Position numbers and translations under genes: made by a program. A DNA stretch of 64,000 bases, taken from the NCBI GenBank assembly GCA_965232515.1, contig CBDDPY010000002.1, positions 4,992,001 through 5,056,000 of the forward strand, in the 5' to 3' direction. This DNA comes from Alphaproteobacteria bacterium. GTDB lineage: Bacteria > Pseudomonadota > Alphaproteobacteria > GCA-2731375. Positions 12,943-59,838 of this stretch are shown in pieces (the stretch's first letter is position 1; the number at the start of each line of letters is the position of its first letter). The notes under the pieces were generated by a model, which searched no databases, had not been told where the DNA came from, and saw only the letters and a program-made list of their open reading frames with translations.

Positions 12943-14256
12943 TCAGAAGCCGATCTCCAGTTCGATGCCGACGAAGAAGGCCGGGTCCGCGTCGTCCGCG
13001 AAGGCGTCGCCCGGCAGGAACGCGCCGGCGATCGCTTCGAGCTCGACCGTCTCGCTCACCTGATAGCCGATGATCAGGTCCACGCCGTTGCCGATTGTGC
13101 GGTCGTGGCCGTCGGGATCGGCGTCGATGGCGGCGTTGCGAAGTTCGTCCGACGCCTCGTGTTGCCGGTAATGGTGGTAGACGAGATCGATCGAGCTGTC
13201 GTCGGTCGGGCGCAGGCCGAGGCCGGCGGTCAGGATGATCAGGTTGCTGAGCTCCGGGTCCAGCACCTCGCCGTAATACTTGAAGCTGGTGATGCCGTTG
13301 AAGTCGTCGTTGTTGTCCTGCAGGCCAGTCTGCCGGAAAGCCCGGTTGGTGCCGTCGTCGGGATCGTCGTCGCCGCTGCCGAAGGCAAGGCCCAGCGTCA
13401 ATGACGGCTCCCATGGCGCGTCGGCCACGTAGCTCGCGCCGACATCGAAACCGTAGCCGCGGATGTCGTCGTCGCCGGCCGCGCCGCGCACATGCATGAG
13501 CTCGACCCAGTAATCGATATTGCCGGTCAGCGCGCCGATCGACTGCAGGCCGATAAAGACCGCGTCCTCGTCGCGGCGGTCGCGGCCGTCGCGATAAAAC
13601 AGATACGGGCTGATCTCACTGTCCTCGCCCACCGCGTAGCGCCCGAGCAGGAAATAGTTGTTGGGTTCGTCTTCCGAGCGGTCGCCCAACAGGTCTTTTT
13701 TGACCAGATCCTCGCGGCTGACCGATGCTTCCAGGCCGAAGGCCGCGCGGCGCAGATAGAGCCGGACGCCGTCCAGATCCTCGTCATAGAGCCATTCGCG
13801 CTTGTCCTCGAACGGCTGCCGGCCGAGCGTCAGCGACAGGCCGGGGAAGACCTCGCGGAAATTCGCATAGGCCTGCTTGACCACCAGCTCGGCGTCCGGC
13901 GAGCCCCGGCCGTCCGGCGCGTCGATGTTGATCTCCTTGTTTATCTCGACATTCAGGAACGCGCGGAACCACGGCGTCGGATCGTAGGAGAAGGCGAGCT
14001 CCAGTTCCGGCTTGACCGCCGTGACGTCGTCGCTCAGGCCGCGCTCCAGGTCGAGGTCGCGTTCATGGGTGAGTTCGAGCTTCAACTCGGCGCCGAAGGA
14101 CAGATTGGGCGTCAGCTGCAGCCGGGTGTCGGGCGGATCGTCGAAATCGAACTCGACGCCCGAATCGTTGATTTGCGCCGCCGCGATTGGCACCGTCGCC
14201 AACAGCACGCCGGCACACGCCAGGCAGACCTCAAGCCGACGGCGCCAGCCGGCCAT
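12943..14256 (-). CDS. Alginate-export (AlgE-like) outer-membrane beta-barrel
   Basis: Signal peptide; GRQPFEDKREWLYDEDLDG, GSGDDDP, FRQTGLQDN, YYGEVLDPELSNL; terminal Phe. Confidence 0.8.
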   Translation of the reverse strand: MAGWRRRLEVCLACAGVLLATVPIAAAQINDSGVEFDFDDPPDTRLQLTPNLSFGAELKLELTHERDLDLERGLSDDVTAVKPELELAFSYDPTPWFRAFLNVEINKEINIDAPDGRGSPDAELVVKQAYANFREVFPGLSLTLGRQPFEDKREWLYDEDLDGVRLYLRRAAFGLEASVSREDLVKKDLLGDRSEDEPNNYFLLGRYAVGEDSEISPYLFYRDGRDRRDEDAVFIGLQSIGALTGNIDYWVELMHVRGAAGDDDIRGYGFDVGASYVADAPWEPSLTLGLAFGSGDDDPDDGTNRAFRQTGLQDNNDDFNGITSFKYYGEVLDPELSNLIILTAGLGLRPTDDSSIDLVYHHYRQHEASDELRNAAIDADPDGHDRTIGNGVDLIIGYQVSETVELEAIAGAFLPGDAFADDADPAFFVGIELEIGF

Positions 14257-15523
14257 CTTCGTCGCGCCTCGGGGTCTGCGGCGCGTCCGATGTGTTCGTG
14301 TCGATGACGGGCATCGTCGTAACCGGGGCCGGTTTCACCGCCAGGAAGGCGTAGATCTCAGCCGCGATGGCGAGCGCGATGCGAACGCCCAGCATCGCCA
14401 TGACGCCCCAGGTGTTCCACAGGAAGCCCGCCAGGACCGGGCCGGCGACGCCGCCCGCCTCCTCGCCCAGGCTGAGCACCGCCATGGTGTGGGCGCGCTT
14501 GCGCCGGTCGAGGTCAGAATGCTGCGCCATCAGCGCGCCCCAGGCCGGCTTGAAGGCGGCCTTGCCGGCCTCGTCGATCAGACGACCGCCCATCATGCCG
14601 GCGAGGTTCGGCGCCACCATGAATACAATCGACGAGACCACGTTGGCGACGCCACGGACCCGCAGCACCAGGTTCCGGCTGACATTGTCGGACAACCAGC
14701 CAAAGCCGGGTCCCGCGACCAGCATGACCATCGCGGCCAGGAAATAGATCATGCCGGTCTCTGCCGCGCTCAGGCCGGCATACTCCACGGCCAGCACGGG
14801 GAACAGGCCGCCGATCATCTTGGCGCTGCTGCTCATCAAGAAGCCCAGCCCCATGATCGACACCAGCCGGCGCCGCAGGTCCGCCGGCCGGGCCTCGACG
14901 TCGGGCGTCTCGGCTGTCGCTTTCGCCGGCGCCGGCGTGCCGGATGCTTTCGCCGGCACGAAACGCCAGACCACGACGACCGGGATCAGCGACAGCAGGG
15001 CCGCGGCCACGAACACCAGTGAAAAATTCTGCGCCGTCGCCGTCAGCAGGATGCCGGCCAGCGCGTGGCCGAGCTTGCCCGAGACGCTCTTCACCGAGGC
15101 GTACCAGGCGAACGACGAGGCCACGGCCCGCTTGGCGCTGCGTTCGGCGATCAGGGCATAGGCCGCCGGGTCGCGCAGCGACCGCGATGCGCCATGCGCC
15201 ATGCGGATGGCGAAGAGATGCCAGGGCAGCCAGGCCAGCGCCAGCAGCAGGGACACCATCGAGCGTAAGGCCAAGGCCGCGACCAAACTGGGTTTCAGCC
15301 CGCAGCGGTCCGCCATCCGTCCCATCGCCGGCTTCAGGATCATGGCGACGGCGAAGTTCAGCGACAGCAGGATGCCGATCTCGGCGACCGACATGCCGAG
15401 ATGATGCGCGTAGAGCGGCAGGGCGAAGGCGATGATGCCGAAGCTGAGCCGGGACGCCAGCCCCTCGGCGACAATGGCCAGCAGAACCGTACGGTCGTGA
15501 CGCGGAGATTGTGCCATCGTCAT
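14231..15523 (-). CDS. MFS transporter
   Basis: About 12 TM segments; motif A GRMADRCGLK and second-half GWLSDNVSR; ATGA overlap with upstream ATP-grasp gene. Confidence 0.88.
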   Translation of the reverse strand: MTMAQSPRHDRTVLLAIVAEGLASRLSFGIIAFALPLYAHHLGMSVAEIGILLSLNFAVAMILKPAMGRMADRCGLKPSLVAALALRSMVSLLLALAWLPWHLFAIRMAHGASRSLRDPAAYALIAERSAKRAVASSFAWYASVKSVSGKLGHALAGILLTATAQNFSLVFVAAALLSLIPVVVVWRFVPAKASGTPAPAKATAETPDVEARPADLRRRLVSIMGLGFLMSSSAKMIGGLFPVLAVEYAGLSAAETGMIYFLAAMVMLVAGPGFGWLSDNVSRNLVLRVRGVANVVSSIVFMVAPNLAGMMGGRLIDEAGKAAFKPAWGALMAQHSDLDRRKRAHTMAVLSLGEEAGGVAGPVLAGFLWNTWGVMAMLGVRIALAIAAEIYAFLAVKPAPVTTMPVIDTNTSDAPQTPRRDEDGRLAPSA

Positions 15524-16515
15524 CCGGCCGCCGTCGCCGGGCTTGCCGGCAACGCCGGCCGATCGCCGGGCAGCGTGCACCGCCCGTCGGCATAGTCGGC
15601 GATATAGTCGGCGATCAGCGGCGCCGCACCCGGCACGCCCTTGTAGCCGGGGAAGTAGTTCACATCCACGACCACCGGACCTTCCGGCCCCTCGATAAAA
15701 TCAAGCCCATAGAGTCCGAGGCCGAAGACCTCGCCGCAACTGAGCGCGATCCGCCGCACCTCTTCGCTGATCTCACAGGCTTCGCCGGCCCGCGTGAAGC
15801 TCGTCGGCGAAAACCGCTTTCGCGTCCCGAATACTTCGCTGCCGACGACATAGACCTTCAGGTCTTCGCCCGGGCCGGGGACAAAGTCCTGCACGATGAC
15901 CGGAACCGGCGACGGCGGCACGGCCGCCAGCTCGACCGCGTTGCGCACGACATGGATGTCGGCGCCGCGATGCCCGCGGTGCGGCTTGATGATCAACGGG
16001 CCGTCCGCCAGTTGCGGCGCCAGCAGCGTCAGGTCGCCGGTCACCCACGAGCGTGGCGCCGGCAGGTCCGCGGCGCGCAGCCGTCGGCAGGCGGTGATCT
16101 TGTCCTGCGCCGCGAGGCACGCGGCATAGGGATTGAGCATGCGGGCGCCCTGGCCATGCAACGTCCCCGCGAGACTGAGCGTCAGCTCGGTATGCGACTT
16201 GATGACGTAAAGATCGTGTTCGACGTCCAGCAGGTCTGCCCGCACGACCATCTCTTCGGCGATGCCGGTTTCGACTCTGAAGCCCCGTCCGCGCAGGATG
16301 TCGAAGACCTCGCGCAGTACCGGGCTGTCCACCGGTGGGACGCGCCGGACCAGCAGGAAATACAAGCTTCCGTTGGCGACCCTTGAGGGTTTGGCAAAGC
16401 CTTTTCGCGCTGTCTTTCGCGCTTTTCCGGTGGCCTTCATCCCGCTGGCGGCTCGTCCGAGGTTGCCTTCATGGGTACCAAGACGAGGCTGGGGGCGCGT
16501 TGCGACGACCTTCAT
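15520..16515 (-). CDS. ATP-grasp protein #4 (RimK/ITPK1-like)
   Basis: QDK, LIIKPHRG, DLKVYVVG, YGLDFI...VVDVNYFPGYKGVP; start could be ATG 16440. Confidence 0.85.
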   Translation of the reverse strand: MKVVATRPQPRLGTHEGNLGRAASGMKATGKARKTARKGFAKPSRVANGSLYFLLVRRVPPVDSPVLREVFDILRGRGFRVETGIAEEMVVRADLLDVEHDLYVIKSHTELTLSLAGTLHGQGARMLNPYAACLAAQDKITACRRLRAADLPAPRSWVTGDLTLLAPQLADGPLIIKPHRGHRGADIHVVRNAVELAAVPPSPVPVIVQDFVPGPGEDLKVYVVGSEVFGTRKRFSPTSFTRAGEACEISEEVRRIALSCGEVFGLGLYGLDFIEGPEGPVVVDVNYFPGYKGVPGAAPLIADYIADYADGRCTLPGDRPALPASPATAAG

Positions 16516-17360
16516 GCTCGCTCCCCCCGGTCACGAGCGGCGTGCCCGTAGCCCTGGCCGGACTTGGCCTCCGCGCAGGCATCGTAAATATAGTCGGCCA
16601 GGTGCCGGCCGGCCTCCGGCACGCCTTTGAAGCCGGGAAAGGCGCTCGTGTCCACGACGTAGGGTCGGCCGTGGCTGATAACGACGTCGATTCCGAAGAC
16701 ATCGATACCGAAGGTTCGCCTGCAACGCATAACGATGTCGAGCAGGTCGTCGACGACTTCGAAAGGTTCACCCAGCTTTTGTTCATAGGTCTGCGCCGGC
16801 CACACGCGTTTGACGCCGAACACGCGTTCGCCGATGCAGTAGATCTTTCGATCCCGTCCTTCCGGCTCCTTGTAGCGTTGAGCTAAAACCGGCGACCTGT
16901 CGAGCGGGATCGTGCTCAGTTGATCTTGCATCCGAATGACATGTACGCCGCGCCCCCGTGAGCCCCGACAGGGCTTCACGATCAACGGCCCCTCATCCAG
17001 CAGGTCCACCAGTTGCTCCGGACGACTGGCGACATAGCTCTCCGGGGCCGGGATGTTGGCCGCCTCGAGCATCTGCGCGGCCACGATTTTGTCGCGCAGC
17101 ATCTCAGAGACCGGATAGGGATTGACGATCCGCGCGCCCAGAGCATGCAGCGCTCCGGCCAGGCTCAACGTCAAGTCGCTGCGATACTTCAAGATGTAGA
17201 GGTCATGTTCGACCCGTAATCGCGTCAGATCGGTCCGCCGTTCCTCCGGGGCGATGACCTCCACGGCAACGCCACGATCGGAAAGGCGCCGAATTATTTC
17301 GGCTGCGATGGAAACGCTATGTGTTTGACGCCCTGCGCGGAGGAACATGGCGATCCTCAT
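16512..17360 (-). CDS. ATP-grasp protein #3 (RimK/ITPK1-like)
   Basis: RDK, LIVKPCRGSRG, DRKIYCIG, FGIDVV...VVDTSAFPGFKGVP; GGAGGAG RBS before ATG 17360. Confidence 0.85.
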   Translation of the reverse strand: MRIAMFLRAGRQTHSVSIAAEIIRRLSDRGVAVEVIAPEERRTDLTRLRVEHDLYILKYRSDLTLSLAGALHALGARIVNPYPVSEMLRDKIVAAQMLEAANIPAPESYVASRPEQLVDLLDEGPLIVKPCRGSRGRGVHVIRMQDQLSTIPLDRSPVLAQRYKEPEGRDRKIYCIGERVFGVKRVWPAQTYEQKLGEPFEVVDDLLDIVMRCRRTFGIDVFGIDVVISHGRPYVVDTSAFPGFKGVPEAGRHLADYIYDACAEAKSGQGYGHAARDRGERA

Positions 17361-17520
17361 GTCGAACTCCTCCGGCTGGCTTTCCGCCCGCATGCTTCTC
17401 TTGTCGTCTGGTGAATGAAGGCAACATCGTCGGTCGCCGCCTGGTTCGAGCCCGGCCCCCGCAAATCGGGCCTTTCTTTGAGCAAGACGCTGCGTTGCAT
17501 TGCCATCGCCATCACCCATT

Positions 17521-18804
17521 TCATTCAGGTCGGGGTGCACGGGTAATCAGGCTGTATAGCGCTCGCCCGGTTAAGCGACCGCATTCGGACATCTCGTTAT
17601 GACGCGAGGGCCGCTGCCAGGCCCAGGTCATGGTCTTCAGGTCGATCAGCAGGTTCTCTCGTTGCCAGCCGCGGGCGAAACGGTCGTATCGGCTCATGAC
17701 CAGGTGGCCCAGGCGGCTGGCGCTGTCGATCGCGCAGATGCGTTCCATGGCGGCGCGGACGCCCTGGCTGCCCATGTCGCGGTCGAGCAGCACCGCCGCC
17801 GGATCGTCCGGGTTGCGGTAGTGCAGGGCCGCCGCGATACCGACCGCCAGGTTGGTCGGCCGCCGGCCGGCCTTCGCCGCCAGCCGGAGAGCGCCAACCA
17901 GCCGGTCGGCGGGCGCCAGCTTGCGAAAGGGATCGCGGGCAACGCGGGTCACGGGATCGTTCAGCACGGCATTGTCGAAGCGCCGGAGAACAGCCGTCAG
18001 GGTATCGCGGCCGCCGGCGATGGCGGCGCCGTAGCGGGCGGCGAGCCCGGCCTGTCCCTCGGCCATCGCCTTCCGGACGACGGCGCGAATCTCCGGATCG
18101 CGGACCGCCGCGTGAATGTAGCGATAGCCCTTCAGATAGCCGATATAGGCGCAGGTCGCGTGCCCGGCGCTGAACATGTAGAGCTTGCGGTGCACATGAG
18201 CGCCGTAATCGGCGGCGACTTTCATGCCGGCGATCACCGGTTTCGGATCGCGCAGCGCCCGGCCGTCGACGACGAACGTCTCGGCTTGGTCGCCGATCAG
18301 GGTCACCGGCTCGGCACAATCGCGCGCCATCTCGAGGTGCGATACCGCGCGCGAGACGAGGGCGCTGACGAAACCGTGCGCGCCGGCGCGGCGCGCGCCC
18401 AGTTCCCGCGCCACCAGTTGGCGTAGTCGGCGGCCCGGGTCTTCCAGGTTCTCGAAGGCGAGCACGTTGACCGGCGACTGTCGCCGCGCCAGTCCCGCCG
18501 AGATCAGCGGCGCCACGTCGGCCAGGTTGTCGGGCCCCACCGCGGTCGCCACCACATTGGCGTTGGCGATCTCGTCGACGGCGCGGGCCTGGTCGTGGAT
18601 CGACACCGCGTCGACTCCACCGACCTCGGTTTCCACACTGTCGGCGCCGTTCGACAACCGCACCCGATAACGCCCGGCCGTGTTCAGGTGCGACAGCAGA
18701 CGCTGGTTGCGCCCGATGAAGGTCAGGTCATAGCCGGACGCCCGCAGCAGATGGCCGGCGAAGCCGCAGCCGACCCGGCCGGGGCCGATGATGACGGCTT
18801 TCAT
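17521..18804 (-). CDS. Mannitol-1-phosphate 5-dehydrogenase-like (MtlD-like) polyol-phosphate dehydrogenase
   Basis: GPGRVGCGF Rossmann motif, ATAVGP, AFEN, HRKLYMFSAGHATCAYIG, RFDN..LNDPVTRVARDPFRKL...DRL. Confidence 0.82.
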   Translation of the reverse strand: MKAVIIGPGRVGCGFAGHLLRASGYDLTFIGRNQRLLSHLNTAGRYRVRLSNGADSVETEVGGVDAVSIHDQARAVDEIANANVVATAVGPDNLADVAPLISAGLARRQSPVNVLAFENLEDPGRRLRQLVARELGARRAGAHGFVSALVSRAVSHLEMARDCAEPVTLIGDQAETFVVDGRALRDPKPVIAGMKVAADYGAHVHRKLYMFSAGHATCAYIGYLKGYRYIHAAVRDPEIRAVVRKAMAEGQAGLAARYGAAIAGGRDTLTAVLRRFDNAVLNDPVTRVARDPFRKLAPADRLVGALRLAAKAGRRPTNLAVGIAAALHYRNPDDPAAVLLDRDMGSQGVRAAMERICAIDSASRLGHLVMSRYDRFARGWQRENLLIDLKTMTWAWQRPSRHNEMSECGRLTGRALYSLITRAPRPE

Positions 18805-19640
18805 TGCAGCACCCTCCGTGGGGCGGCGGGCGTCGAGGCCCAGTCGGCATCCTGGGCGCAGGTGTAGACATAGTCGGCCAGACGTAGCGCCGCGTCCGGC
18901 ACGCCCTTGAACCCGGGAAAGCTGTTAACATCGACGACATAGGCCTGACCGTTGCTGAAGATCACGTCGATCCCGAATACGTCGATGCCGAAGGCGCGGC
19001 CGCTCATCAAGGCGATATCCCGCAATTCCGCCGAGATCGTCAGCGGGCGGCCCAGCTTCTGCCGGTAGGTCCGGGCCGGCCATTCGCGCTCGACGCCGAA
19101 CACCTGTCCGTTGATGCAATAGATCTTGTGGTCGAAGCGGTCCGGCGCCTTGTAGCGCTGGGCGATGACGGGTCCGGTGCTGGCCGGCAGTTGTTCCAGC
19201 TCCGCGCGGTCGCGCACCACGCGGATACCCCGGCCCTTCGAACCGCGGGCCGGTTTGATGACCAGCGCGCCTTCTTCCAGGATCGACGCCAGATCGCTCG
19301 GCCTTTCGGCGGCATAGGCCGGCGGCGTCGGGATCCGCGCCCGCTGCAGAATGCGGTAGACGATCGCCTTGTCCCTCAGCATCGCGGCCACGGGAAAGGG
19401 ATTGATGATCCGCGCGCCGGTCGCGTGCAGCGCGCCGGCGAAGCTCAGCGCGCCTTCGCTGCTCGATTTCAGGACATAGAGGTCGTGATGGGGCCAGCGC
19501 TGGGTCAGACAGATCGGGCTTTCGTCCGGACAGATCAGGTCGATCTCCGCGCCCCACTCCGACAGCAGGTGGACCATCTCCCGCATGATCGGGCTGCTTT
19601 GTCCGTCCGGATGGGCGCGAACCAGAAAACCGATTTTCAC
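18801..19640 (-). CDS. ATP-grasp protein #2 (RimK/ITPK1-like)
   Basis: RDK, LVIKPARGSKG, DHKIYCING, FGIDVI...VVDVNSFPGFKGVP; GTG start overlaps the upstream stop. Confidence 0.85.
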   Translation of the reverse strand: MKIGFLVRAHPDGQSSPIMREMVHLLSEWGAEIDLICPDESPICLTQRWPHHDLYVLKSSSEGALSFAGALHATGARIINPFPVAAMLRDKAIVYRILQRARIPTPPAYAAERPSDLASILEEGALVIKPARGSKGRGIRVVRDRAELEQLPASTGPVIAQRYKAPDRFDHKIYCINGQVFGVEREWPARTYRQKLGRPLTISAELRDIALMSGRAFGIDVFGIDVIFSNGQAYVVDVNSFPGFKGVPDAALRLADYVYTCAQDADWASTPAAPRRVLQ

Positions 19641-20527
19641 GACACCCTCCCCTTATCCGATGCCGGCGCACCGTCCGCGCTCAGGCAATGGGCGGCGATG
19701 TAATCGGCCAAACGGTGATCGGCGTCCGGCACGGCGGAATAGTTCGGGAAGTCGTTCACCTCGATGACCACCAGGCCTCTCGAGCTTTCCAGGCAATCGA
19801 CGCCATAGAGATCGAGTTCGAAGGCCGCGCGGCAGGTCTGCGCCAGGCGCCGCATGGCTGGCGTCACCGTTACCAGCTCGGCATCGTCGTCCATGGCCGC
19901 GTGCGGCAGCGGCGACGGCTTGCGTACCGCCCAGAGGTCGGCGCCGATGCCGTAGAGTTTCAGGTCATAGCTGTCGCTCGGCAGGAAGTGCTGGGCCAGG
20001 ACCGTCGGATCCGGCCACGCGAGGTCCACCAGCTCGCGCGCGCTGTCGACGAGACGTATGCCGCGGGCATTGTCGCCGAAGACGGGCTTCAGGATCAGCG
20101 GGTAGTCCACGCCGGGGTTCAGTTTGCGCGGAAGCAGGGCGATCGGGCCGACGAACGTCCGCGGGATCGGCAACCCCTCCGCCGCCAGCACCATGGACAT
20201 GTGCGCCTTGTTCAGCACCGCTCTGATGCTGGCGCTGCGGTTGATGGTGGGCGTGCCCTGCCGTTCCGCATGGCTCAGCAGCAACAGAAGCATCAGGCTC
20301 CGGCCGCGGGCCACCACGGCGTCGAACGTGATGGTCGGTGAACGATTGTCGAAACGGCAAACGGCGGCGTCCGGGTCGACCAGCTCGACGTCATAGCCGC
20401 GCTCGGCGAGCGCCGTCATCACGCCGGCGGGCTGCGGCTGCGACATGTAGCGCCGCTCGGCCAGAATGCCGATCTTCGGTGCCGTCGACGACCGACGGCA
20501 CCCCTGTGGGGATAGTCCCATCGTCAT
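19637..20527 (-). CDS. ATP-grasp protein #1 (RimK/ITPK1-like)
   Basis: LNK, PLILKPVFG, DLKLYGIG, YGVDCL...VIEVNDFPNYSAVP; AGAGGG RBS. Confidence 0.85.
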   Translation of the reverse strand: MTMGLSPQGCRRSSTAPKIGILAERRYMSQPQPAGVMTALAERGYDVELVDPDAAVCRFDNRSPTITFDAVVARGRSLMLLLLLSHAERQGTPTINRSASIRAVLNKAHMSMVLAAEGLPIPRTFVGPIALLPRKLNPGVDYPLILKPVFGDNARGIRLVDSARELVDLAWPDPTVLAQHFLPSDSYDLKLYGIGADLWAVRKPSPLPHAAMDDDAELVTVTPAMRRLAQTCRAAFELDLYGVDCLESSRGLVVIEVNDFPNYSAVPDADHRLADYIAAHCLSADGAPASDKGRVS

Positions 20528-20610
20528 GCCCTCTTTATTTCTGCGTCGCGGATTTCGTTTTGCCGCCGCCCGACTGCGGCATCCGCTGTCAATTCGTGTT
20601 TAGTTTGTTC

Positions 20611-20650
20611 GTTTCAGTTTTATGACAAATTTACACGGCGCAGATGACAA
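20611..20650 (-). promoter_or_regulatory. PhoB-box-like (OmpR-family) direct repeats upstream of the ATP-grasp operon
   Basis: Minus strand TTGTCAT-N15-TTGTCAT-AAAA-CTGAAAC; the two TTGTCAT units are 22 bp apart (11-bp periodicity) in an AT-rich leader. Confidence 0.55.
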
Positions 20651-20810
20651 ACACCTGTCGCCAAGATTAAGACCAGATGAATAAGACATTAGTGTTGGAT
20701 GAACGGGCGCGACCGCGCGACCAAGCCGTCTTTCAGTCCGTTATTTGCGCAACCCGGAGTCAGAAAAGCGGCGCCTGCGATCCGGTTTGGCGCGTTAGCC
20801 GACCGCGATG

Positions 20811-21605
20811 TCACTCAGGCATGCTGCGCCAGGTCTCCGCGCATTCGGTGCAGGACGACCGGCGCGGATGCAGAAACGCGAACGGGTTTGCCGTCAACGT
20901 CGGCACGACGGTGTCGACCACATCGCGGGCGCGCATCAGCTTCGCTGGTGCGTATCCGACCGGGCCTTCGGCTTGCAGGCCGCGTTCCGTCAGCCAGGCG
21001 TTCGCCAGGCGGAACAGCGCGCAGCAATGATCGTTCTCCAGATAGTCGATCCGCGTCGGCCGGCCGTCCCGCGACACGGTGATGTGCTTCGGGCGCCGGT
21101 AGGGCACGTCCGCCAGCAATTCGGCCAGATGCAGCATGGTGCTGGCGTCGTGGTCGACGCCCAGCAGCAGCACCTTGCCGTCGGCCTCCAGCACGCGCCC
21201 GACCGGGCTCTCGTGCTGATGCGGTGGCAGCACCAGATCGTCGGCCAGGATCTCGGTGGCCTTCGGCCCGCGCGCCGAGAACGCGAAGGCATGCCGGCCG
21301 CGCTTGACGCCCGGCAGCAGCCGGAATGTTTCGGCGACGACACCCAGATCCTCCGCCACCGGCGTCGATACGGGATCGAACACGGCGTCGTCGTCGCCAG
21401 TCCACGACGGCATCGCGATCGTGCCCTCGGGCCCGACGGCTGCGCCCAGCGCCGCAATCAACCCGGCCGGCCCGCCCGCCACCGGCCGCACCGCGCGAAA
21501 CGACGTATGCACCAGCACGACATCGCCACGCGCGACGCCGAGCGCCTGGAGCTGGGCGACGAGCTCCGGCACAGAAATCTCGCAACGGGCATGCCATGCG
21601 GTCAT
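20811..21605 (-). CDS. AAC(3) family aminoglycoside N-acetyltransferase, AAC(3)-IV-like
   Basis: LVHTSFRAVRP, MPSWTGDDD, DLGVV, LLLGVDHDASTMLHLAE, DYLENDHCC, C-terminal FLHP...CTEC Cys cluster. Confidence 0.88.
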   Translation of the reverse strand: MTAWHARCEISVPELVAQLQALGVARGDVVLVHTSFRAVRPVAGGPAGLIAALGAAVGPEGTIAMPSWTGDDDAVFDPVSTPVAEDLGVVAETFRLLPGVKRGRHAFAFSARGPKATEILADDLVLPPHQHESPVGRVLEADGKVLLLGVDHDASTMLHLAELLADVPYRRPKHITVSRDGRPTRIDYLENDHCCALFRLANAWLTERGLQAEGPVGYAPAKLMRARDVVDTVVPTLTANPFAFLHPRRSSCTECAETWRSMPE

Positions 21606-21766
21606 GGATCAAGCGCTTTTCTATAGGGTTGGCAGGTAGGGTCCGAATACGTTGACCGGGCGATGGCGAAGCCGGGGCGAAAAGACAGAGTCGATTCCAT
21701 GTATCGAGGGATCATAGCTTGAAGACCGTTTCTGGAGCGCCGGATTTGTCTTCGTCGTAAAATACA

Positions 21767-21776
21767 GGTATATACC
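21767..21776. promoter_or_regulatory. Palindrome, candidate MarR autoregulatory operator
   Basis: GGTATATACC perfect palindrome 6 bp upstream of the marR ATG. Confidence 0.45.
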
Positions 21777-21782
21777 CATAAT

Positions 21783-22199
21783 ATGACCGACACCGCCTGC
21801 ATGTGTATCGGGCTGCGCCGGGCCGGCCGAGCGGTCACGCGTTTCTACGATGACGCCCTGGCGCCGGCCGGGGTGAACGCCACGCAGTTCTCCCAGTTGC
21901 GCGCGATCCTGCGGGCCGGATCCCCGACCATCGGCGCGCTGGCTGACGCCACCGATCTCGACCGCAGCACGCTTGGACGCAATATCCGCGTCCTCGCGCG
22001 CATGGGTCTCGTCCGGTTCGAGCCGGGCGCGGACGAGCGCACGCGCCTTGTGTCGGTTACCACGGATGGCAAGCGGGTGTTGAAGGCCGCCACGCCGCTT
22101 TGGCGGACGGCGCAGTCGGCGCTCGCCGAGAAGCTGGGCGCCGGTCGCCGCGCCGTCCTGTTCGATCTTCTGCATGAGTTGGAGACCGTCGACGTCTGA
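21783..22199 (+). CDS. MarR family regulator
   Basis: C.C..LRRA.R..TR.YD..L...G, DRSTLGRN, DERTR wing motif. Confidence 0.9.
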   Translation: MTDTACMCIGLRRAGRAVTRFYDDALAPAGVNATQFSQLRAILRAGSPTIGALADATDLDRSTLGRNIRVLARMGLVRFEPGADERTRLVSVTTDGKRVLKAATPLWRTAQSALAEKLGAGRRAVLFDLLHELETVDV

Positions 22200-22250
22200 G
22201 TTTGCAACCGGCCGCGACAGACGGCCGGGCGACAAGAAGGGAGGCCGAAA

Positions 22251-24593
22251 ATGATGCAGCCACGGACCGAGCCATCGGCGCTGAAGTCCGTCGTCTGTAC
22301 CAGTTGCGACGGCTTTTGCCCCGTCGCGGCGAAGGTCGAGGACGGCCGCGTCGTCAAGGTCACCACCCGCGAGCACCCGTTCTTCAAGGACGTGATCTGC
22401 ATGAAGGGCGCCTATGCGCCGAAGTCCTTCGCGCATCCCGACCGCCTTCTGCATCCGCTGAAGCGCACCGGCGCGCGGGGCGAGGGCGGCTGGCAGCAGG
22501 TCACCTGGGACGACGCGCTCGACGACATCGCCGAGCGCCTGCGAACGGTCGTCGCCCGGTACGGGCCCGAAGCTTTCGCCGTCGCCGCCAGCAACGCCAA
22601 TTTCGGCCTCGACAACGGCCTGACGCGGCGGTTCATGAACCTCATCGGCTCGCCCAACTTCATCAGCGGCGTGGCCTACTGCATGGGCAACACGGCCGCC
22701 GTCAACCGCATGGTCTACGGCTGGTACCCGCGCGGCGACATCCTCAATTCGAAATGCATCGTGCTGTTCGGCCACGATCCCCGCCGGCATAGCTGGACGC
22801 TGGAATACAAATCCATCCGCGTCGCCCAGGCCGGCGGCGCCAAGCTGATCGTGCTCGACCCTCGCAAAAGCGAGAACGCCGAGGCCGCCGATATCTGGCT
22901 GCCGCTGCGCGCCGGCACCGACGCCGCCATGACCCTGGGCTGGCTGAACGTGATCCTGGAAGAGAGCCTCTACGACAAGGATTTCGTGCGCGACTGGACC
23001 GTCGGCTTCGACGCCTTTGCCGAGCGCGTGCGCGAGTATCCGCTGGACCGGGTCGCCGAGATCACCGGCGTCGACGCCGAACTGATCGCCGGGGCGGCGC
23101 GCATGTACGCCATGTCGTCGCCTGCCGTGATCCCCTGGTCCCCGATCACCGACCAGCAGGCCTCCTCGACCTCGGCGATCCGGCTGCAATGCGCCCTGCG
23201 GGCGCTCACCGGCAATCTCGACGTCAAGGGCGGCGAGATGTTCGCCGGCTTTCATCCCGGCATCCGCTCGGACACCGAGATCGAGCTGCATGACGAACTG
23301 TCCGACGCGCAGAAGGCGAAGCAGCTCGGGGCCGAAGAATTCCCGGTCTTCACCTATCGCGGCATGCGGGCGCTGGGCGATGCGACCGAACGCGTCTGGG
23401 GCGCGCGCTGGGCCAACCTGATTTCGGGCTGCTACATGGCGAACCCCATGGCCGTGTTCAAGGCCATGGCCGACGGCGATCCTTATCCCGTGCGGGCGTT
23501 CTTCGCGCTCGCCAACAACACGCTGATGTCGTTCGCCAACACCCGGCGGATCTACGACGCGCTGATGCGGCAGGACCTGATCGTCGCCTACGAGCATATG
23601 CTGACGCCGACGGCCCAGCTCGCCGACTACGTGCTGCCGGGCGACGCCTGGCTCGAGCGGCCGAGCATGATGGCGGGGCTCAGCGAGCAGGCCATGGCGC
23701 CGCCCGGCGACTGCAAGTCGATCGTGTATTTCTGGTGCGAGTTGGCAAACCGGATGGGAATGGAAGCGTATTTCCCGTGGGCATCGGTGGAAGCGCTGCT
23801 GGATTTCCGTCTGGAGCCGGCGGAGACGACCTGGGAGGGAGTCGTCGCCGCCGGCCGCCTGCCGAAGGCCGGCTACGAGGAGAAGAAGTATCTCAAGACC
23901 GGTTTCGCCACGCCGTCGGGCAAGGTCGAGCTCGCGTCCTCGGTGCTGGGCGATCTCGGCTTCGACCCACTGCCCTACTACCGCGAGGCCGCGGCGCCGG
24001 ACACCGACTTTCCGATGACCATGTTCATCGGCCTGCCCGACGACGAGTATTACCGCACCGGCCACCGGCATATCCCGGAATTGCGTCAGCGGGCGCAGGA
24101 CCCGACGCTCTTCGTCAACCCGGACGACGCCGACCGGCTCTGTCTGGACGAAGGCGGCTGGGCCCGGGTCGAAACCGCGGCCGGCGCCATGGCCGGCCGC
24201 GTCTTCGTGCGCTCGGCCATGCCGGCCGGGCTCATCCGCGTGCCGCACGGCTGGTGGAAACCGGAATCGCGGCCCGGTCTCGAGAACATGTCCGGCATGT
24301 GGTCGTTCGCCGACGCGCAGCTCACGTCGGACGACGATCCCGACCTGATCGACCGCGAGCAGGGCGTGCCGCACCTGAAGGGCGTGCCCTGTCGCATTTC
24401 CGCGCTCGACCCGGCCGAGGTCGCCCGGCTCGAAGCCGAGTTCGGCCCCACCGACCGGCTGCCGCGCGGCCCCGAGGGAAAGGTGCTGCGCGCGAAAAGC
24501 CGGCCCGGCGACCTCACGTTTGACGACGAATTCGGCGACGGCGTCGAATTCGAAGCGGTTCAGCTTTCCCTTTACGGCCGCGGCTCTGTATAG
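22251..24593 (+). CDS. Mo/W-bisPGD oxidoreductase (DMSO reductase superfamily), acetylene-hydratase-like
   Basis: CTSCDGFC...CMK [4Fe-4S] motif, RRFMNLIGSPN, YCMGNTA, IPW..TDQQ.SS.SAIR.QC.LRA, GDAWLERP; GGGAGG RBS. Confidence 0.88.
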   Translation: MMQPRTEPSALKSVVCTSCDGFCPVAAKVEDGRVVKVTTREHPFFKDVICMKGAYAPKSFAHPDRLLHPLKRTGARGEGGWQQVTWDDALDDIAERLRTVVARYGPEAFAVAASNANFGLDNGLTRRFMNLIGSPNFISGVAYCMGNTAAVNRMVYGWYPRGDILNSKCIVLFGHDPRRHSWTLEYKSIRVAQAGGAKLIVLDPRKSENAEAADIWLPLRAGTDAAMTLGWLNVILEESLYDKDFVRDWTVGFDAFAERVREYPLDRVAEITGVDAELIAGAARMYAMSSPAVIPWSPITDQQASSTSAIRLQCALRALTGNLDVKGGEMFAGFHPGIRSDTEIELHDELSDAQKAKQLGAEEFPVFTYRGMRALGDATERVWGARWANLISGCYMANPMAVFKAMADGDPYPVRAFFALANNTLMSFANTRRIYDALMRQDLIVAYEHMLTPTAQLADYVLPGDAWLERPSMMAGLSEQAMAPPGDCKSIVYFWCELANRMGMEAYFPWASVEALLDFRLEPAETTWEGVVAAGRLPKAGYEEKKYLKTGFATPSGKVELASSVLGDLGFDPLPYYREAAAPDTDFPMTMFIGLPDDEYYRTGHRHIPELRQRAQDPTLFVNPDDADRLCLDEGGWARVETAAGAMAGRVFVRSAMPAGLIRVPHGWWKPESRPGLENMSGMWSFADAQLTSDDDPDLIDREQGVPHLKGVPCRISALDPAEVARLEAEFGPTDRLPRGPEGKVLRAKSRPGDLTFDDEFGDGVEFEAVQLSLYGRGSV

Positions 24594-24646
24594 CTAGGCG
24601 CGGGACAGGCGACGACGGATCGTCGCCGACATATCGAGAGGGAAGC

Positions 24647-25654
24647 ATGGCCCAGAACCGCCAGGTTATTGTCCGTGAGCTGCCGAAGGGCGCGCTGACG
24701 CAGGATCACTTCGAGTTGCGCGAGGCCGAGATGCCTGCGATCGGCGCGGGCGAGGCGCTGGTCCGCACCGTCCTCATGTCGATCGACGCCGCCAACCGGG
24801 CCTGGATGCAGGGCGCGACCTACCGCGAGGCCGTGAAGGCCGGCGACGTCATGCACACCTATTCGATCGGCGAGGTCGTGGAATCGAACGACGACAGCCT
24901 GACGCCGGGCGACATCGTCGCGGTCGAGGCGCGTTGGGCCGACTATGTGGCGGTCAAGGCGCGGCGCGCGCAGAAACTGCCCGACATTCGGCCGCTGTCG
25001 CACCTGCTGTCCGTCTACGGCATCGCCGGCAAGACCGCCTATCACGGTCTGGTCGGCGTCGGCCGGCCCAACGCCGGCGAGACCGTCGTGGTCTCGGCTG
25101 CGGCCGGCTCGGTCGGCATCTATGTCGGCCAGATCGCCAAGGCGCTCGGCTGCCGCGCCGTCGGCATCGCCGGCGGGCCCGAAAAGTGCGCCTGGGTGAC
25201 GGACGAATTGGGCTTCGATGCCTGCGTCGACTACCGCGCCGGCAACCTGTTCAAGGACCTGAAGGCCGCCTGCCCGGACGGCGTCGACATCTATTTCGAC
25301 AATGTCGGCGGCGCGGTGCTGGAAACCGTGCTGTTCCAGATGAACGAGAAGGGCCGCGTCGTCTGCTGCGGCGCCGTCAGCCAGTACGACGCCGACGCGC
25401 CGTCGGGTCCGCGCAACCTGCCCGGCCTGGTCGTGGTCAAGCGCCTGCGCATGGAGGGTTTCATCGTCATGGACTTCGCCGACCAGGACCAGAAGGCGAC
25501 CGACGACATCGGCAACTGGCTCCGCGACGGCAAGCTGAAGGTGGTCGACGACATCGTCGACGGCCTGGAGAACGCGCCCAGCGCCCTCATCGGCCTGCTC
25601 GCCGGCGACAACCGCGGCAAACGCATGGTCCGCGTCGCCCCCGACCCGGGGTGA
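24647..25654 (+). CDS. NADP-dependent oxidoreductase (PGR/LTB4DH/CurA-like alkenal reductase)
   Basis: VSAAAGSVG, GIAGGPEKC, DIYFDNVGG, CGAVSQY, GLENAP, NRGK. Confidence 0.9.
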   Translation: MAQNRQVIVRELPKGALTQDHFELREAEMPAIGAGEALVRTVLMSIDAANRAWMQGATYREAVKAGDVMHTYSIGEVVESNDDSLTPGDIVAVEARWADYVAVKARRAQKLPDIRPLSHLLSVYGIAGKTAYHGLVGVGRPNAGETVVVSAAAGSVGIYVGQIAKALGCRAVGIAGGPEKCAWVTDELGFDACVDYRAGNLFKDLKAACPDGVDIYFDNVGGAVLETVLFQMNEKGRVVCCGAVSQYDADAPSGPRNLPGLVVVKRLRMEGFIVMDFADQDQKATDDIGNWLRDGKLKVVDDIVDGLENAPSALIGLLAGDNRGKRMVRVAPDPG

Positions 25655-25696
25655 GCGAGCGGCGGGCGCATTCCGACGGACGGCGCGGACGTTTGT

Positions 25697-26116
25697 TCAC
25701 AGTTTTTCGCCGGGCAGCTGACTGGCCTGCATCACCCAATCGGAGAACTGGTCATCGAGCCGATCGCCTTCGTGAATGTTGAAGTAGCGCACGTCCTTTT
25801 GCTTCGACTCGCCGGGCGGCGTGGGGCTCAGCGACGCGCCACTGAAGAAGGTGACTTGGACGTAATTCGTGAAGCAGTAATAGCTGAGGAACCAGCCCTG
25901 GCCCTCGATGCCATATAAGGGCGCGTTCCATTTGACAGCCTTCTGCATGTCGGGGACGGTGCGTTTGACGATGTCGTCGATGCCGCGCCCGACATCGCGT
26001 TTCCAACCCGGCATGGCGGCGATATAGGCCTGAACCGGACCGTCCCCATCGCCCTTCGGAATCTGCGGGTTGCCGCCCGTGAGAAGTTTCGGTTTCGACG
26101 ATTTCTTGTCTGCCAT
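25697..26116 (-). CDS. DUF1801 (YdhG-like) protein
   Basis: GNPQIPKGDGDGPVQAYIAAMPGWK, KAVKWNAPLYG. Confidence 0.8.
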   Translation of the reverse strand: MADKKSSKPKLLTGGNPQIPKGDGDGPVQAYIAAMPGWKRDVGRGIDDIVKRTVPDMQKAVKWNAPLYGIEGQGWFLSYYCFTNYVQVTFFSGASLSPTPPGESKQKDVRYFNIHEGDRLDDQFSDWVMQASQLPGEKL

Positions 26117-26420: not shown

Positions 26421-26873
26421 CTAAGCCTCCGCGAACGACAGCGCCAGCAGGTCGCCGCGCAGGGTGTCGGTGTCATCGCCTCCCAGCAACCGGTCGACCA
26501 CATCATGCGTACGGCGCCAGATTGGCACGGCTTGTTTCAGGAGATCCCGGCCGGCGTCGGTCAGCCCGAGGCGGCGGCTGCGTTTATCATTCGGGTCCGG
26601 AAACACGGTCAAGAGGCCGCGCCGTTCCAGCGGCTTGGCGTTCGCCGTCAGCGTCGTCCGATCCATGGCGAGCAACCGGGCGACGTCGCCGATGCGCGGC
26701 GGCTCGGGCCGGTTAAGCGAGATCAACAACGAATATTGTCCGTGCGTCAGCCCGACGGGCCTGAGCGCGTCGTCGAACCGCCGGCCGATGGCCCGCGCGG
26801 CACGCTGCAAATGCAGGCACAGACAGCGGTCGCGAACCTCGTGCGTGACGCTGAGTGGCAGATCGTTTCTCAT
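26421..26873 (-). CDS. MarR family regulator
   Basis: CLCLHLQRAAR, MDRTTLTAN.KPLERRG, DKRSR. Confidence 0.9.
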   Translation of the reverse strand: MRNDLPLSVTHEVRDRCLCLHLQRAARAIGRRFDDALRPVGLTHGQYSLLISLNRPEPPRIGDVARLLAMDRTTLTANAKPLERRGLLTVFPDPNDKRSRRLGLTDAGRDLLKQAVPIWRRTHDVVDRLLGGDDTDTLRGDLLALSFAEA

Positions 26874-30316: not shown

Positions 30317-30430
30317 ACGGCTGCGCCGCCCGGACGTCGCCGCAAGCTATGCGCACCGGTGGCATGTGGCCCGGCCATTCGCTAGACTCCCGCCGAACGG
30401 GCGTTCGTATAGCAAAGGATGGGCGGAGCG

Positions 30431-31324
30431 ATGGCGGCGAAGAACTGGCAAGTCAGGCGTCTGACGACGGCGCTGGGGGCGGAGGTAACGGGGCGGCGCT
30501 TGGCCGAGACCGACGCGGCCGACATCCCCGAAATCACGCGCCTGCTGCACGAGCACATGGTGCTGTTCTTTCCCGATCAGCACATGGCCGCCGGCGATCA
30601 GGTCGCCTTCGGCCGCCATTTCGGCCCGCTCGAAGGCCATCCGAACCTGACGGACCGCAACCTCAAGGAGCATCCGGAGCTCTATCGCCTGGCCGCCAGC
30701 CAGGGCGGCATCGCCGACGAATGGCACACCGATCTCACCTTCCTGCCGCAACCGGCCTTGATGTCGATCCTGAACATGAAACAGTGCCCCGAGATCGGCG
30801 GCGACACCATGTGGAGCAGCATGTTCGCCGCCTATGAAGGCCTGTCGGCGCCCATGCAGGAACTCTGCGACGGCCTCAGCGCGCTACACGACGCGCATCC
30901 GCACGACCGCGCCGACCGCACGACCATCCATCCGCTGGTCCGCGTCGACCCCGGCAGCGGCCGCAAGGCGCTTTATGTGAACGAACATTTCACCCGGCGC
31001 ATCGTCGAGATGAATCCGACCGAGAGCGACGCCCTGCTGACCTACCTCACCAACTGGGTCAAGCAGCCGGCCTTCACCGTGCGCTACCACTGGCGGGCCG
31101 GCACCATCGGCATGTGGGACAACCGCTTCACGCAGCACTATGTGATCAACGACTTCGTCGGCGAGCGCGTGATCGAGCGCGTCACCGTGATGGGCGACCG
31201 GCCGAAGGGCGCCGCGCCGCGTTGGCGCCCCTGGACCGAACGCGCCGGCCGCTCCGCCATGACGCGCCACGACCGCCAGCTCATCCGCCACCTCAAATCC
31301 GCGACGGCCGACGCCGCGGAGTGA
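30431..31324 (+). CDS. TauD/TfdA family Fe(II)/2-oxoglutarate dioxygenase
   Basis: WHTD, GGDT.W, HPLVR, WDNR.TQH. Confidence 0.9.
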   Translation: MAAKNWQVRRLTTALGAEVTGRRLAETDAADIPEITRLLHEHMVLFFPDQHMAAGDQVAFGRHFGPLEGHPNLTDRNLKEHPELYRLAASQGGIADEWHTDLTFLPQPALMSILNMKQCPEIGGDTMWSSMFAAYEGLSAPMQELCDGLSALHDAHPHDRADRTTIHPLVRVDPGSGRKALYVNEHFTRRIVEMNPTESDALLTYLTNWVKQPAFTVRYHWRAGTIGMWDNRFTQHYVINDFVGERVIERVTVMGDRPKGAAPRWRPWTERAGRSAMTRHDRQLIRHLKSATADAAE

Positions 31325-57017: not shown

Positions 57018-57506
57018 TCAGCCCGTTTCGACGTCCTTCAGAAAGGTTTTCAGCAGCGCATCGAGTTGCCGCCGCTCCGGCTTGGACAGGCCGGCCACCA
57101 GTCGGCACTGTGTTTCCACATGATCGGTGACCGCCGCGTCGATGACGCGGAAGCCCTTGTCCGTCAGCGAAATCAAAAAGCTGCGGCGGTCGTCCTGGCT
57201 TTGGCTTCGTTCGACGAGCCCCGCTTTCTCGAGCTGATCGATCCGGTTCGTCATGGTGCCCGACGTCACCATCGTCGTCGCCATCAGGTCGCCCGGCGAC
57301 AGGGCGAACGGCGGCCCGGACCGGCGCAGCGTCGCCAATACGTCGAAGCTGGCGGCGTTGAGGCCATGCACCGCCCAGGTCTTCTCCATTTCGTGCGAGA
57401 GGCGGAGCGTGAGCCGCTTGAGGCGCCCCAGCAGCCCCATGGGCGCGACCTCGAGGTCGGGGCGTTCCTGCCGCCACTGCGCCAGAATCCTGTCGACGTG
57501 ATCCAT
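57018..57506 (-). CDS. pecS: PecS-like (UrtR-type) MarR regulator
   Basis: DHVDRILAQW..ERPDL N-terminal helix, FDVLATLRRSG, SGTMTNRID; divergent from a pecM-like gene. Confidence 0.85.
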   Translation of the reverse strand: MDHVDRILAQWRQERPDLEVAPMGLLGRLKRLTLRLSHEMEKTWAVHGLNAASFDVLATLRRSGPPFALSPGDLMATTMVTSGTMTNRIDQLEKAGLVERSQSQDDRRSFLISLTDKGFRVIDAAVTDHVETQCRLVAGLSKPERRQLDALLKTFLKDVETG

Positions 57507-59160: not shown

Positions 59161-59838
59161 ATGTCCACGCACAACGGCCAAGACACCGTCGAGATCGTTC
59201 CGACGCACCGCGCGCCACGGGACGCCGGCGACAGGATTGCGTTCGCGTTCGTCAAGGCGTTGCGCTTTGCCGCGGATCGCTTTTTCGCTCAGCGCTACGG
59301 GCATCGCGCGGTCGTGCTGGAAACGGTCGCCGCCGTGCCGGGCATGGTCGGCGGCCTGCTCCAGCATCTGTCGGCGCTGCGGCATATCCGCGACGATCGC
59401 GGCTGGATTCGCGAGCTTCTGGCCGAGGCCGAGAACGAGCGGATGCATCTGATGACCTTCGTGCAGATTGCCCAGCCGACGGTGCTCGAGCGGCTGGTCA
59501 TCATGGCCACCCAGGCCGTGTTCTATAATTTCTATTTCTTCCTCTATCTGTTCGCGCCCAAGACCGCGCACCGGGTCGTGGGTTATTTCGAGGAGGAAGC
59601 CGTCGCCAGCTATACCCACTTCCTCGCCCAGATCGACGCCGGCGCGCAGGCCAACGTGCCAGCCCCGCCGATCGCCATCGACTACTGGGGCTTGGCTCCC
59701 GACGCGACGTTGCGCGATGTCGTGCTGGCAGTGCGCGCGGACGAAGCCGGCCATCGCGACCGCAATCACGGCTTTGCCGACAGCCTGAAACGGGGTGATC
59801 GCCCCATTGGCGCCGGCCAAACCGCCGCCATGCGATAG
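59161..59838 (+). CDS. aox: Alternative (ubiquinol) oxidase
   Basis: Di-iron motifs LETVAAVPGMV, EAENERMHL, GYFEEEA..SY, RADEAGH; AGGAG RBS. Confidence 0.95.
   Translation: MSTHNGQDTVEIVPTHRAPRDAGDRIAFAFVKALRFAADRFFAQRYGHRAVVLETVAAVPGMVGGLLQHLSALRHIRDDRGWIRELLAEAENERMHLMTFVQIAQPTVLERLVIMATQAVFYNFYFFLYLFAPKTAHRVVGYFEEEAVASYTHFLAQIDAGAQANVPAPPIAIDYWGLAPDATLRDVVLAVRADEAGHRDRNHGFADSLKRGDRPIGAGQTAAMR

Follow-up and report, generated by a model that had tools for sequence, protein, structure and literature searches.

A 64,000 nt stretch of DNA from an Alphaproteobacteria bacterium (GTDB lineage Bacteria; Pseudomonadota; Alphaproteobacteria; GCA-2731375; GenBank assembly GCA_965232515.1, contig CBDDPY010000002.1, positions 4,992,001 to 5,056,000 of the forward strand), hereafter the window, was found to carry a gene for a protein, P0001, that resembles the acetylene hydratase (AH) of Pelobacter (Syntrophotalea) acetylenicus. 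The question raised by this locus is whether the encoded enzyme hydrates acetylene, hydrates another substrate or is a redox enzyme of the same descent. AH is described as the sole molybdenum/tungsten (Mo/W) enzyme with a non-redox reaction in a 2025 review (PMC12096430). As predicted from its sequence, P0001 is a cytoplasmic, single-subunit enzyme of the AH clade, and the reading that we favour, with a confidence falling slightly short of even, is that it would be a Mo enzyme that hydrates something other than plain acetylene in a non-redox reaction.

The gene and the segments of its product on which this reading depends are:

22251 to 24593, + strand: AH-like Mo/W-bis-molybdopterin guanine dinucleotide (bis-MGD) [4Fe-4S] enzyme P0001, 780 aa (match to structure 2e7z; Pfam)
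22296 to 22319, + strand: CTSCDGFC, residues 16–23 of P0001, with three cluster cysteines, Asp20 and Gly21/Phe22
22677 to 22697, + strand: YCMGNTA, residues 143–149 of P0001, with Tyr143, the metal ligand Cys144 and Met145
24393 to 24590, + strand: C-terminal tail, residues 715–780 of P0001, absent from AH (alignment)

Among all solved structures the best match to P0001 was AH itself (2e7z_A; 643.2 bits, E 5.1e-192), residues 12–711 aligning with positions 2–718 of the chain, end to end over 700 residues and with no large gaps. The second-ranked structure, PsrA/thiosulfate reductase 2vpw, scored 220 bits. The Pfam matches were PF04879 (23.4 bits, cut-off 22.7), PF00384 (139.6 bits) and PF01568 (48.4 bits), and P0001 fell below every NCBIfam equivalog cut-off, the highest scores being those of PhsA (268 bits, cut-off 694) and Fdh-alpha (259 bits). 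With 15 residues ahead of the first cluster cysteine, P0001 has no space for a twin-arginine translocation (Tat) or Sec signal.

All open reading frames and motifs named in the initial annotation of this DNA were located where it had placed them, namely CTSCDGFC (residues 16–23), ICMK (49–52), YCMGNTA (143–149), RHSW (179–182), IPW (294–296) and GDAWLERP (464–471), with RRFMNLIGSPN also present in the translation. AH residues are numbered here as 2e7z chain position + 3, a rule that agrees with the residues which PMC7970554 calls Cys12/Asp13, Ala137/Met138 and Cys141. In the 2e7z alignment Cys16, Cys19, Cys23 and Cys50 of P0001 correspond to the four [4Fe-4S] cysteines of AH (Cys9, Cys12, Cys16 and Cys46), and Asp20, immediately past the second of them, corresponds to Asp13. 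Lys52 corresponds to Lys48, Cys144 to the metal ligand Cys141, and Trp182, Trp296 and Trp467 to Trp179, Trp293 and Trp472. In AH, Asp13 is hydrogen-bonded to the metal-bound water and to Trp179 (PMC7970554), and a catalytic role is ascribed to it (PMC7970554, PMC12096430).

Around this retained set the pocket differs. Ile14, Ile113 and Ile142 of AH are replaced by Gly21, Ala116 and Met145, so that P0001 does not have the small hydrophobic isoleucine ring, sized for acetylene, of a strict-sense AH (EC 4.2.1.112). Asn15 is replaced by Phe22, Met140 by Tyr143, Arg606 by Pro596, Gln612 by Arg602 and Phe611 by Tyr. The residue calls of the initial annotation (Asp, Lys, Cys and Trp kept; Ile14 to Gly, Ile142 to Met, Ile113 to Ala) were all right according to this alignment, in which Asp20 and Asp13 do align. 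A six-residue hydrophobic ring was reportedly described in AH by Seiffert in 2007, and most of the activity is said to have been lost in the I142A variant made by tenBrink in 2011. Ile113 and Ile142 lie close to the active site of AH (PMC7970554).

The position of P0001 among its relatives was examined in a tree. A pool of 411 proteins, gathered by three homologue searches and an exhaustive search for representatives, was filtered to 375 of 650–900 aa (fragments and fusions left out) and reduced by greedy thinning at 72% identity to 186 representatives, among which the sequence of AH itself is absent. These were aligned with MAFFT (703 columns at 60% occupancy or more) and the tree was built with FastTree under LG+gamma. 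Sequences with an Asp past the second cluster cysteine formed one clade of 59 of the 186 (support 1.0), and P0001 lies inside it. All 59 members have the four cluster cysteines, Asp13, Cys141, Trp179 and Trp293; Lys48 is present in 57 and Trp472 in 53 (Phe in five, Met in one). Of the 127 sequences outside the clade, 2 have Asp13 and 125 do not, and 106 show a gap in the Trp179 column. Asp13 and Trp179 are therefore joint hallmarks (synapomorphies) of the clade.

The residues of AH, as read from the 2e7z alignment, comprise the full signature of this Asp-bearing clade, and clade members match 2e7z with high scores (P0330, 789 bits; P0404, 709; P0341, 706; P0001, 643; P0305, 625.5; P0126, 607). 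Thus the proposal that P0001 is AH-like was borne out at the level of the AH clade and not merely of the dimethyl sulfoxide reductase family, both by the 643-bit match and by the clade signature; the phylogeny places P0001 within the Asp-bearing clade, to which AH is linked by that signature and by the match scores. The pocket columns are less uniform. The Ile14 column holds Ile in 25 of the 59 representatives, Gly in 15, Leu in five, Ala in five and Met in four, and the Arg606 column holds Arg or Lys in 45 of the 59 and in 115 of the 127 sequences outside.

P0001 belongs to a terminal group of the clade, with 16 representatives (support 1.0) and a core of 11 (0.999), whose members have some 780 aa and share 63–83% identity with P0001. 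Conservation was counted among the 120 nearest homologues of P0001, the N-terminus being present in 114. The catalytic set is invariant: Asp20 was found in 114 of 114, and Cys144, Lys52 and each Trp in 120 of 120. The changed pocket positions are also conserved to a large extent, with Gly21 in 89/114 (otherwise Cys, Asn, Ser or Gln), Phe22 in 109/114, Ala116 in 86/120 (Trp in 17), Tyr143 in 118/120, Met145 in 88/120 (Ala in 28), Pro596 in 97/120 and Arg602 in 104/120. In the signature strings Ala116 occurs together with Pro596 and Arg602, and Trp116 together with Arg596 and Gln602. The replacement of Arg606 by Pro, with Arg in place of Gln612 six residues on, looks like a relocated guanidinium group. 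The role of Arg606 in AH is presumed here, no mention of the residue having turned up in the literature searched.

Two further traits set the subfamily apart. Eight residues are deleted right behind the GDxWLERP motif that carries Trp472 (119/120), and a C-terminal tail of about 65 residues with the acidic/aromatic pattern DFMxDxxxGxxVEFxAxxLSxYGRxS is present in 117/120. The tail had no Pfam match, and in the Atlas it yielded only C-terminal fragments of molybdopterin proteins of its own family (scores 0.85–0.86). Phe22 and Tyr143, the apparently relocated Arg, the loop deletion and the conserved tail all go beyond what the initial annotation had seen. Two copies of the 780 aa type, 69–77% identical to P0001, were found in single genomes or metagenome-assembled genomes (MAGs), as in the locus pairs L005/L009, L004/L010 and L044/L074 and in genomes G016 and G385; the paralogues within one MAG share the pocket signature and so give no sign of substrate divergence.

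Next-nearest in the tree to the 780 aa subfamily, behind P0351 and P0355, is a group of proteobacterial and Bacteroidota proteins of about 720 aa, which includes P0404 of Bradyrhizobium australafricanum, P0372 of Paraburkholderia sp. C35 and P0341 (annotated 'acetylene hydratase' by JGI). They are 53–58% identical to P0001 and have the same catalytic set, but differ from it in having Ile14, Trp113, Leu140, Ala142, Arg606 and Gln612, with neither the tail nor the loop deletion. In AH numbering, this distribution suggests a stepwise history. It would have started from the 720 aa type with Ile14, Trp113, Leu140, Ala142 and Arg606, passed through forms in which Tyr140, Met142, the deletion and the tail had appeared while Trp113 and Arg606 were still there, and ended in the core type, where Ala113, Pro606 and Arg612 are found.

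Another clade member, P0305, is deposited at NCBI as 'molybdopterin-dependent oxidoreductase [Bradyrhizobium sp. I71]'. It shares with P0001 the Asp, Cys, Lys and triple-Trp signature, an aerobic proteobacterial host and 42% identity over 730 residues. It differs in belonging to a basal subclade on the opposite side of the deepest split, in its Met/Thr/Leu pocket, in keeping Arg606 and in having neither the conserved tail nor the loop deletion. Strain I71 is reportedly an aerobic acetylenotroph, and P0305 may be its hydratase. The wider bis-MGD branch also contains the metallopterin ergothioneine synthase MES and, from Eggerthella and Gordonibacter, Dadh, Cldh and further catechol dehydroxylases. 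These are redox or sulfur-transfer enzymes, and P0001 is far closer to AH than to them; sequences at their distance in the tree set have neither the Asp13 nor the Trp179 residue. AH is reported as the closest characterised relative of the catechol dehydroxylases (PMC7028382), and the N-terminal module of MES as 27% identical to AH (PMC9516567). A search of the literature, with most subscription papers outside its scope, found nothing on the 780 aa subfamily, on named alkyne hydratases or on strain I71, and a preprint on polyphenols in SAR116 mentions no molybdoenzyme.

Compared with AH, P0001 thus has the same fold, core length, single-subunit and cytoplasmic character, [4Fe-4S] cysteines and catalytic residues, and differs in the Gly/Ala/Met ring, the second-shell changes, the deletion of eight residues and the tail of about 65. 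That the pocket is rebuilt is established at the level of the alignment; that it is also enlarged is conjectural, because Phe22 and Tyr143 add bulk while Gly21 and Ala116 remove it, and the cavity is not demonstrably larger. The earlier idea of a remodelled pocket accordingly stands as regards remodelling, and its extension to a larger alkyne stays conjectural. Propyne and ethylene are reported not to be hydrated by AH, with propyne a competitive inhibitor and steric repulsion one of the reasons proposed (PMC6308299).

With the ring and second shell rebuilt, the loop lost and the tail gained, the substrate of P0001 is probably a substituted or functionalised alkyne and not plain acetylene. We infer both the hydratase chemistry and this substrate class from the retained and the altered residues. 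In the mechanism proposed, most likely that of AH, Asp20, which sits beside the cluster ligand Cys19, would activate a water or hydroxide bound to the reduced metal, for which Cys144 and two pterins are the ligands. The activated water would then add to a C–C triple bond, or to some other unsaturated bond that is strongly activated; electrons would not be transferred on balance, and the resulting enol would tautomerise to a carbonyl compound.

The host genome (7.39 Mb in 4 contigs) contains one clade member, its next-best paralogue being 37% identical over 326 residues. MobA (above cut-off), ModA and three genes for haem-copper oxidase subunit I (COX1) were found in it, and the window itself carries AOX (59161–59838), TauD and a flavin monooxygenase (FMO)-like gene. 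The organism had been described as apparently aerobic, and the AOX, TauD and FMO-like genes together with the three haem-copper oxidase genes agree with this. MobA, ModA and the oxidase genes point to an aerobic host that uses Mo, which is likelier than W and which we infer as the metal of P0001; AH, by comparison, is W-dependent and comes from a strict anaerobe (PMC12096430).

The distribution of the gene is patchy. Of 24 other genomes in the same family, 5 carry it; the sole genome of the same genus, which is 81% complete, does not. When 400 species were sampled evenly across the class, 12 had a clade member, two of the 780 aa type and ten 53–58% identical. Only 2 of 201 sampled Bradyrhizobium genomes, a sample that does not include I71, had one. 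Going by record titles, most homologue loci belong to MAGs of Alpha- and Gammaproteobacteria from marine sources, such as the open ocean, and from sponges. Some matches contain an in-frame stop, namely TAG in G004 (L085), TAA in G041 (L100), and TGA in four matches of about 58% that extend past residue 720 (G598, G526, G535 and G275); these may be broken genes or alignments reading through a natural stop.

The sequences next to P0001 contain the following features:

21783 to 22199, + strand: MarR-family regulator P0003, 138 aa (Pfam MarR_2 4e-10, MarR 3.5e-7)
22237 to 22244, + strand: Shine-Dalgarno-like AAGGGAGG, 6 nt 5' of the ATG at 22251 (sequence reading)
24608 to 24627, + strand: 8-bp GC-rich hairpin without a U-run, in the gap between P0001 and P0002 (RNA fold)
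24647 to 25654, + strand: medium-chain dehydrogenase/reductase (MDR) double-bond reductase P0002 of the PTGR1/CurA/YncB type, NADPH-dependent, 335 aa (Pfam)
25675 to 25697, + strand: terminator-like stem-loop with T-run, 21 nt 3' of the reductase stop codon (consensus scan)

The three genes are on the same strand, with gaps of 51 nt (MarR to P0001) and 53 nt (P0001 to P0002), and of the three just the last is followed by a terminator-like site, so they may form one transcript. P0003 fell below all NCBIfam equivalog cut-offs and had no close orthologue among 40 relatives (best identity 45%). P0002 contains ADH_N_2 (1.2e-26) and ADH_zinc_N domains (Rossmann MDR), and scored 354.7 bits against CurA (cut-off 440) and 239.8 bits against LTB4-12HD (cut-off 579.85); on this evidence it is assigned to the family of NADPH alkenal/one reductases and to no named equivalog. 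The hairpin in the second gap (-18.2 kcal/mol, z -1.96) is marginal, 8 of 200 shuffles folding equally well. The terminator-like site at 25675–25697 is weak by itself since the consensus scan found three such sites in all, with 3.4 expected in shuffles. An Rfam search of the window gave no match.

Neighbours were surveyed at 74 public loci with a P0001 homologue, some short-flanked so that fewer than 74 are informative, and at six loci, with 1.5-kb flanks, from genomes of the same family as the host. No P0002-like reductase adjoined the homologue at any of the 74 or of the six; one locus, L037, has an MDR gene 29% identical on the opposite strand, some 3 kb upstream. A MarR gene stood directly upstream at 1 of the 74 loci (again L037, 48% identical), a second one, at L055, is about 4 kb away, and none was present within the flanks of the six. 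A conserved operon that unites the AH-like enzyme with the ene-reductase and MarR was therefore rejected, and the earlier pairing of the enzyme with an alkenal reductase under MarR control as a functional unit is not supported; the MarR-P0001-P0002 arrangement is a local gene order peculiar to the genome of the window.

No constant partner gene was found across the 74 loci. The most frequent neighbour clusters were family III CoA-transferases and PhyH dioxygenases (11 loci each), short-chain dehydrogenases/reductases (9), and acyl-CoA ligases, flavin monooxygenases and glutathione S-transferases (7 each). No gene for an electron-transfer subunit recurred beside the homologues, the neighbours of P0001 itself being the MarR and MDR reductase genes. 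Genes of acyl-CoA metabolism flank 28 of the 74 loci (crotonase 16, CoA-transferase 10, ligase 8, acyl-CoA dehydrogenase 5, thiolase 3), against 11.5% of 5000 size-matched random segments of the chromosome from which the window was taken. They serve as a lead to acid or thioester substrates and nothing beyond, and make an acetylenic acid one possibility for the substrate.

In an RNA-seq run labelled as from another organism (X1), contigs 95–99% like positions 21700–25563 were found, and such similarity indicates that a close relative of the window's bacterium was present in the sample. A single contig, which differs at 25 of 970 bases and so comes from a relative about 97% identical, runs from the MarR gene into the first part of the hydratase gene (21700–22669). 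Portions of both enzyme genes are covered by further contigs, but none crosses the gap between hydratase and reductase, and 23978–24781 is without coverage. The RNA library may contain carried-over DNA. A second RNA run (X2) gave pieces of 17–22 nt and one of 197 nt.

Several points weigh against a hydratase for a substrate other than acetylene. The columns of Ile14, Ile113 and Ile142 vary throughout the clade, and such variation alone is no proof of a new substrate; freely varying positions fit specificity-determining sites, and a change at them would by itself be compatible with acetylene. P0305, from the presumed acetylenotroph I71, likewise does not have the Ile triad. The space vacated by Gly21 and Ala116 may be taken up again by Phe22 and Tyr143, and the exchange of Arg606 for Pro and of Gln612 for Arg may just relocate one cofactor-binding guanidinium. 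The acyl-CoA signal is weak, the loci being phylogenetically dependent and the background taken from one genome only; none of the acyl-CoA-family genes adjoins P0001 in the window; and the family III CoA-transferases, being 30–35% identical and non-orthologous, are a theme and not a partner. Moreover, the nearest characterised relatives outside the clade, the catechol dehydroxylases, are redox enzymes (PMC7028382), and the proteins that form a subfamily with AH are described as biochemically uncharacterised so far (PMC12096430). A more specific form of the favoured reading, in which the 780 aa subfamily would be an oxygen-compatible Mo non-redox hydratase for functionalised alkynes such as acetylenic carboxylic acids or natural enyne and polyyne metabolites, with the tail and the relocated Arg as pocket-shaping adaptations, is possible but rather doubtful.

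A plain aerobic Mo-type AH, with the whole Asp-bearing clade making acetaldehyde from acetylene and the pocket merely tuning affinity or oxygen tolerance, is unlikely in our estimate. It would account for the full catalytic set kept in P0001 and for its match to AH (643 bits), which is above that of P0305 (625.5 bits). As P0305 and the near-AH P0330 flank the deepest split of the clade, the trait would be ancestral if both hydrate acetylene. On the other hand, three changes in the Ile ring, five in the second shell, the deletion and the tail are all conserved in the subfamily, and some MAGs hold two copies with the same pocket. The activity reportedly lost in the I142A variant of AH also speaks against a plain AH. 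The subfamily also occurs mainly in MAGs from the open ocean and from sponges, settings in which acetylene is scarce. Aerobic, Mo-dependent acetylene hydration has been reported in Rhodococcus, which favours such an enzyme, and according to the same article no aerobic acetylene hydratase has yet been characterised (PMC7858054).

Still less probable is a redox enzyme of AH descent, for instance a reductase or dehydroxylase fed by ferredoxin or NAD(P)H. P0001 keeps the [4Fe-4S] cluster as well as Lys52, by which electrons usually reach the pterin, the best sub-threshold NCBIfam matches (PhsA and Fdh-alpha, as above) are all oxidoreductases, and the catechol dehydroxylases, closest among the characterised relatives outside the clade, act reductively (PMC7028382); yet AH too keeps its cluster and Lys48 with no redox turnover (PMC12096430). 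Asp13 and Trp179 are specific to the clade, the Asp missing in 125 of the 127 redox-side relatives, and neither a recurrent electron-transfer subunit gene nor a Tat signal was found. A local inducible unit, compatible with the favoured hydratase, is about as improbable as a redox enzyme. An enyne or propargylic substrate would be hydrated to an α,β-unsaturated carbonyl compound, which P0002 would saturate with NADPH under MarR control, and the formation of an enone by Markovnikov hydration of a conjugated enyne is, in our judgement, chemically plausible. The shared strand, the short gaps, good ribosome-binding sites, the terminator-like site only past the third gene and the contig joining MarR to the start of the hydratase gene speak for it. 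The reductase and MarR counts at the homologue loci speak against it, as do the hairpin-containing gap that no contig bridges and the possible DNA carry-over.

P0001 represents a large sister lineage, found in aerobes and tightly conserved, in which the catalytic machinery has been kept and the pocket systematically rebuilt. Non-redox Mo/W catalysis is so far represented by one enzyme and one substrate (PMC12096430), and the subfamily offers a concrete target in which further chemistry may be sought. If the more specific reading, a hydratase for functionalised alkynes, is true, it would add a second substrate class to the sole known type of non-redox Mo/W enzyme, and the occurrence of the subfamily in aerobic Alpha- and Gammaproteobacteria of marine and sponge habitats would suggest an unrecognised sink for natural acetylenic compounds; a regioselective Mo alkyne hydratase in an aerobic host would be of interest to biocatalysis. 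As the pocket positions vary widely within the clade, the use of AH homologues as markers of acetylenotrophy, as in PMC10100899, needs caution.

The rest of the window holds several other features. Upstream of the MarR gene, a run on the - strand (12943–21605) encodes an alginate-export-type porin, a major facilitator superfamily transporter and three RimK-like ATP-grasp enzymes, together with mannitol-dehydrogenase-like and aminoglycoside 3-N-acetyltransferase-like proteins, and looks like an uncharacterised small-molecule pathway of the peptide-ligase type with export. Downstream of the reductase gene a second MarR gene (26421–26873, - strand) faces detoxification-type genes that extend through 30316 and include a glyoxalase/bleomycin-resistance fragment, two PhnB-like (3-dmu-9_3-mt) genes, and DUF1428, BNR-repeat and GFA genes; TauD (30419–31324) comes after them. 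A third MarR gene (57018–57506, - strand) is divergent from genes for an EamA transporter, an NAD(P)H-binding protein and AOX (to 59838; PF01786, 1e-82), an oxidase uncommon in bacteria. A gene at 43306–46284 (- strand), for a 992 aa protein with an N-terminal caspase domain (Peptidase_C14) and two FGE-sulfatase-type stretches, lies in the part of the window richest in GC (0.734), and a gene at 6680–8602 (- strand), for a 640 aa adenylate/guanylate-cyclase and tetratricopeptide repeat protein, in the part poorest in it (0.596).

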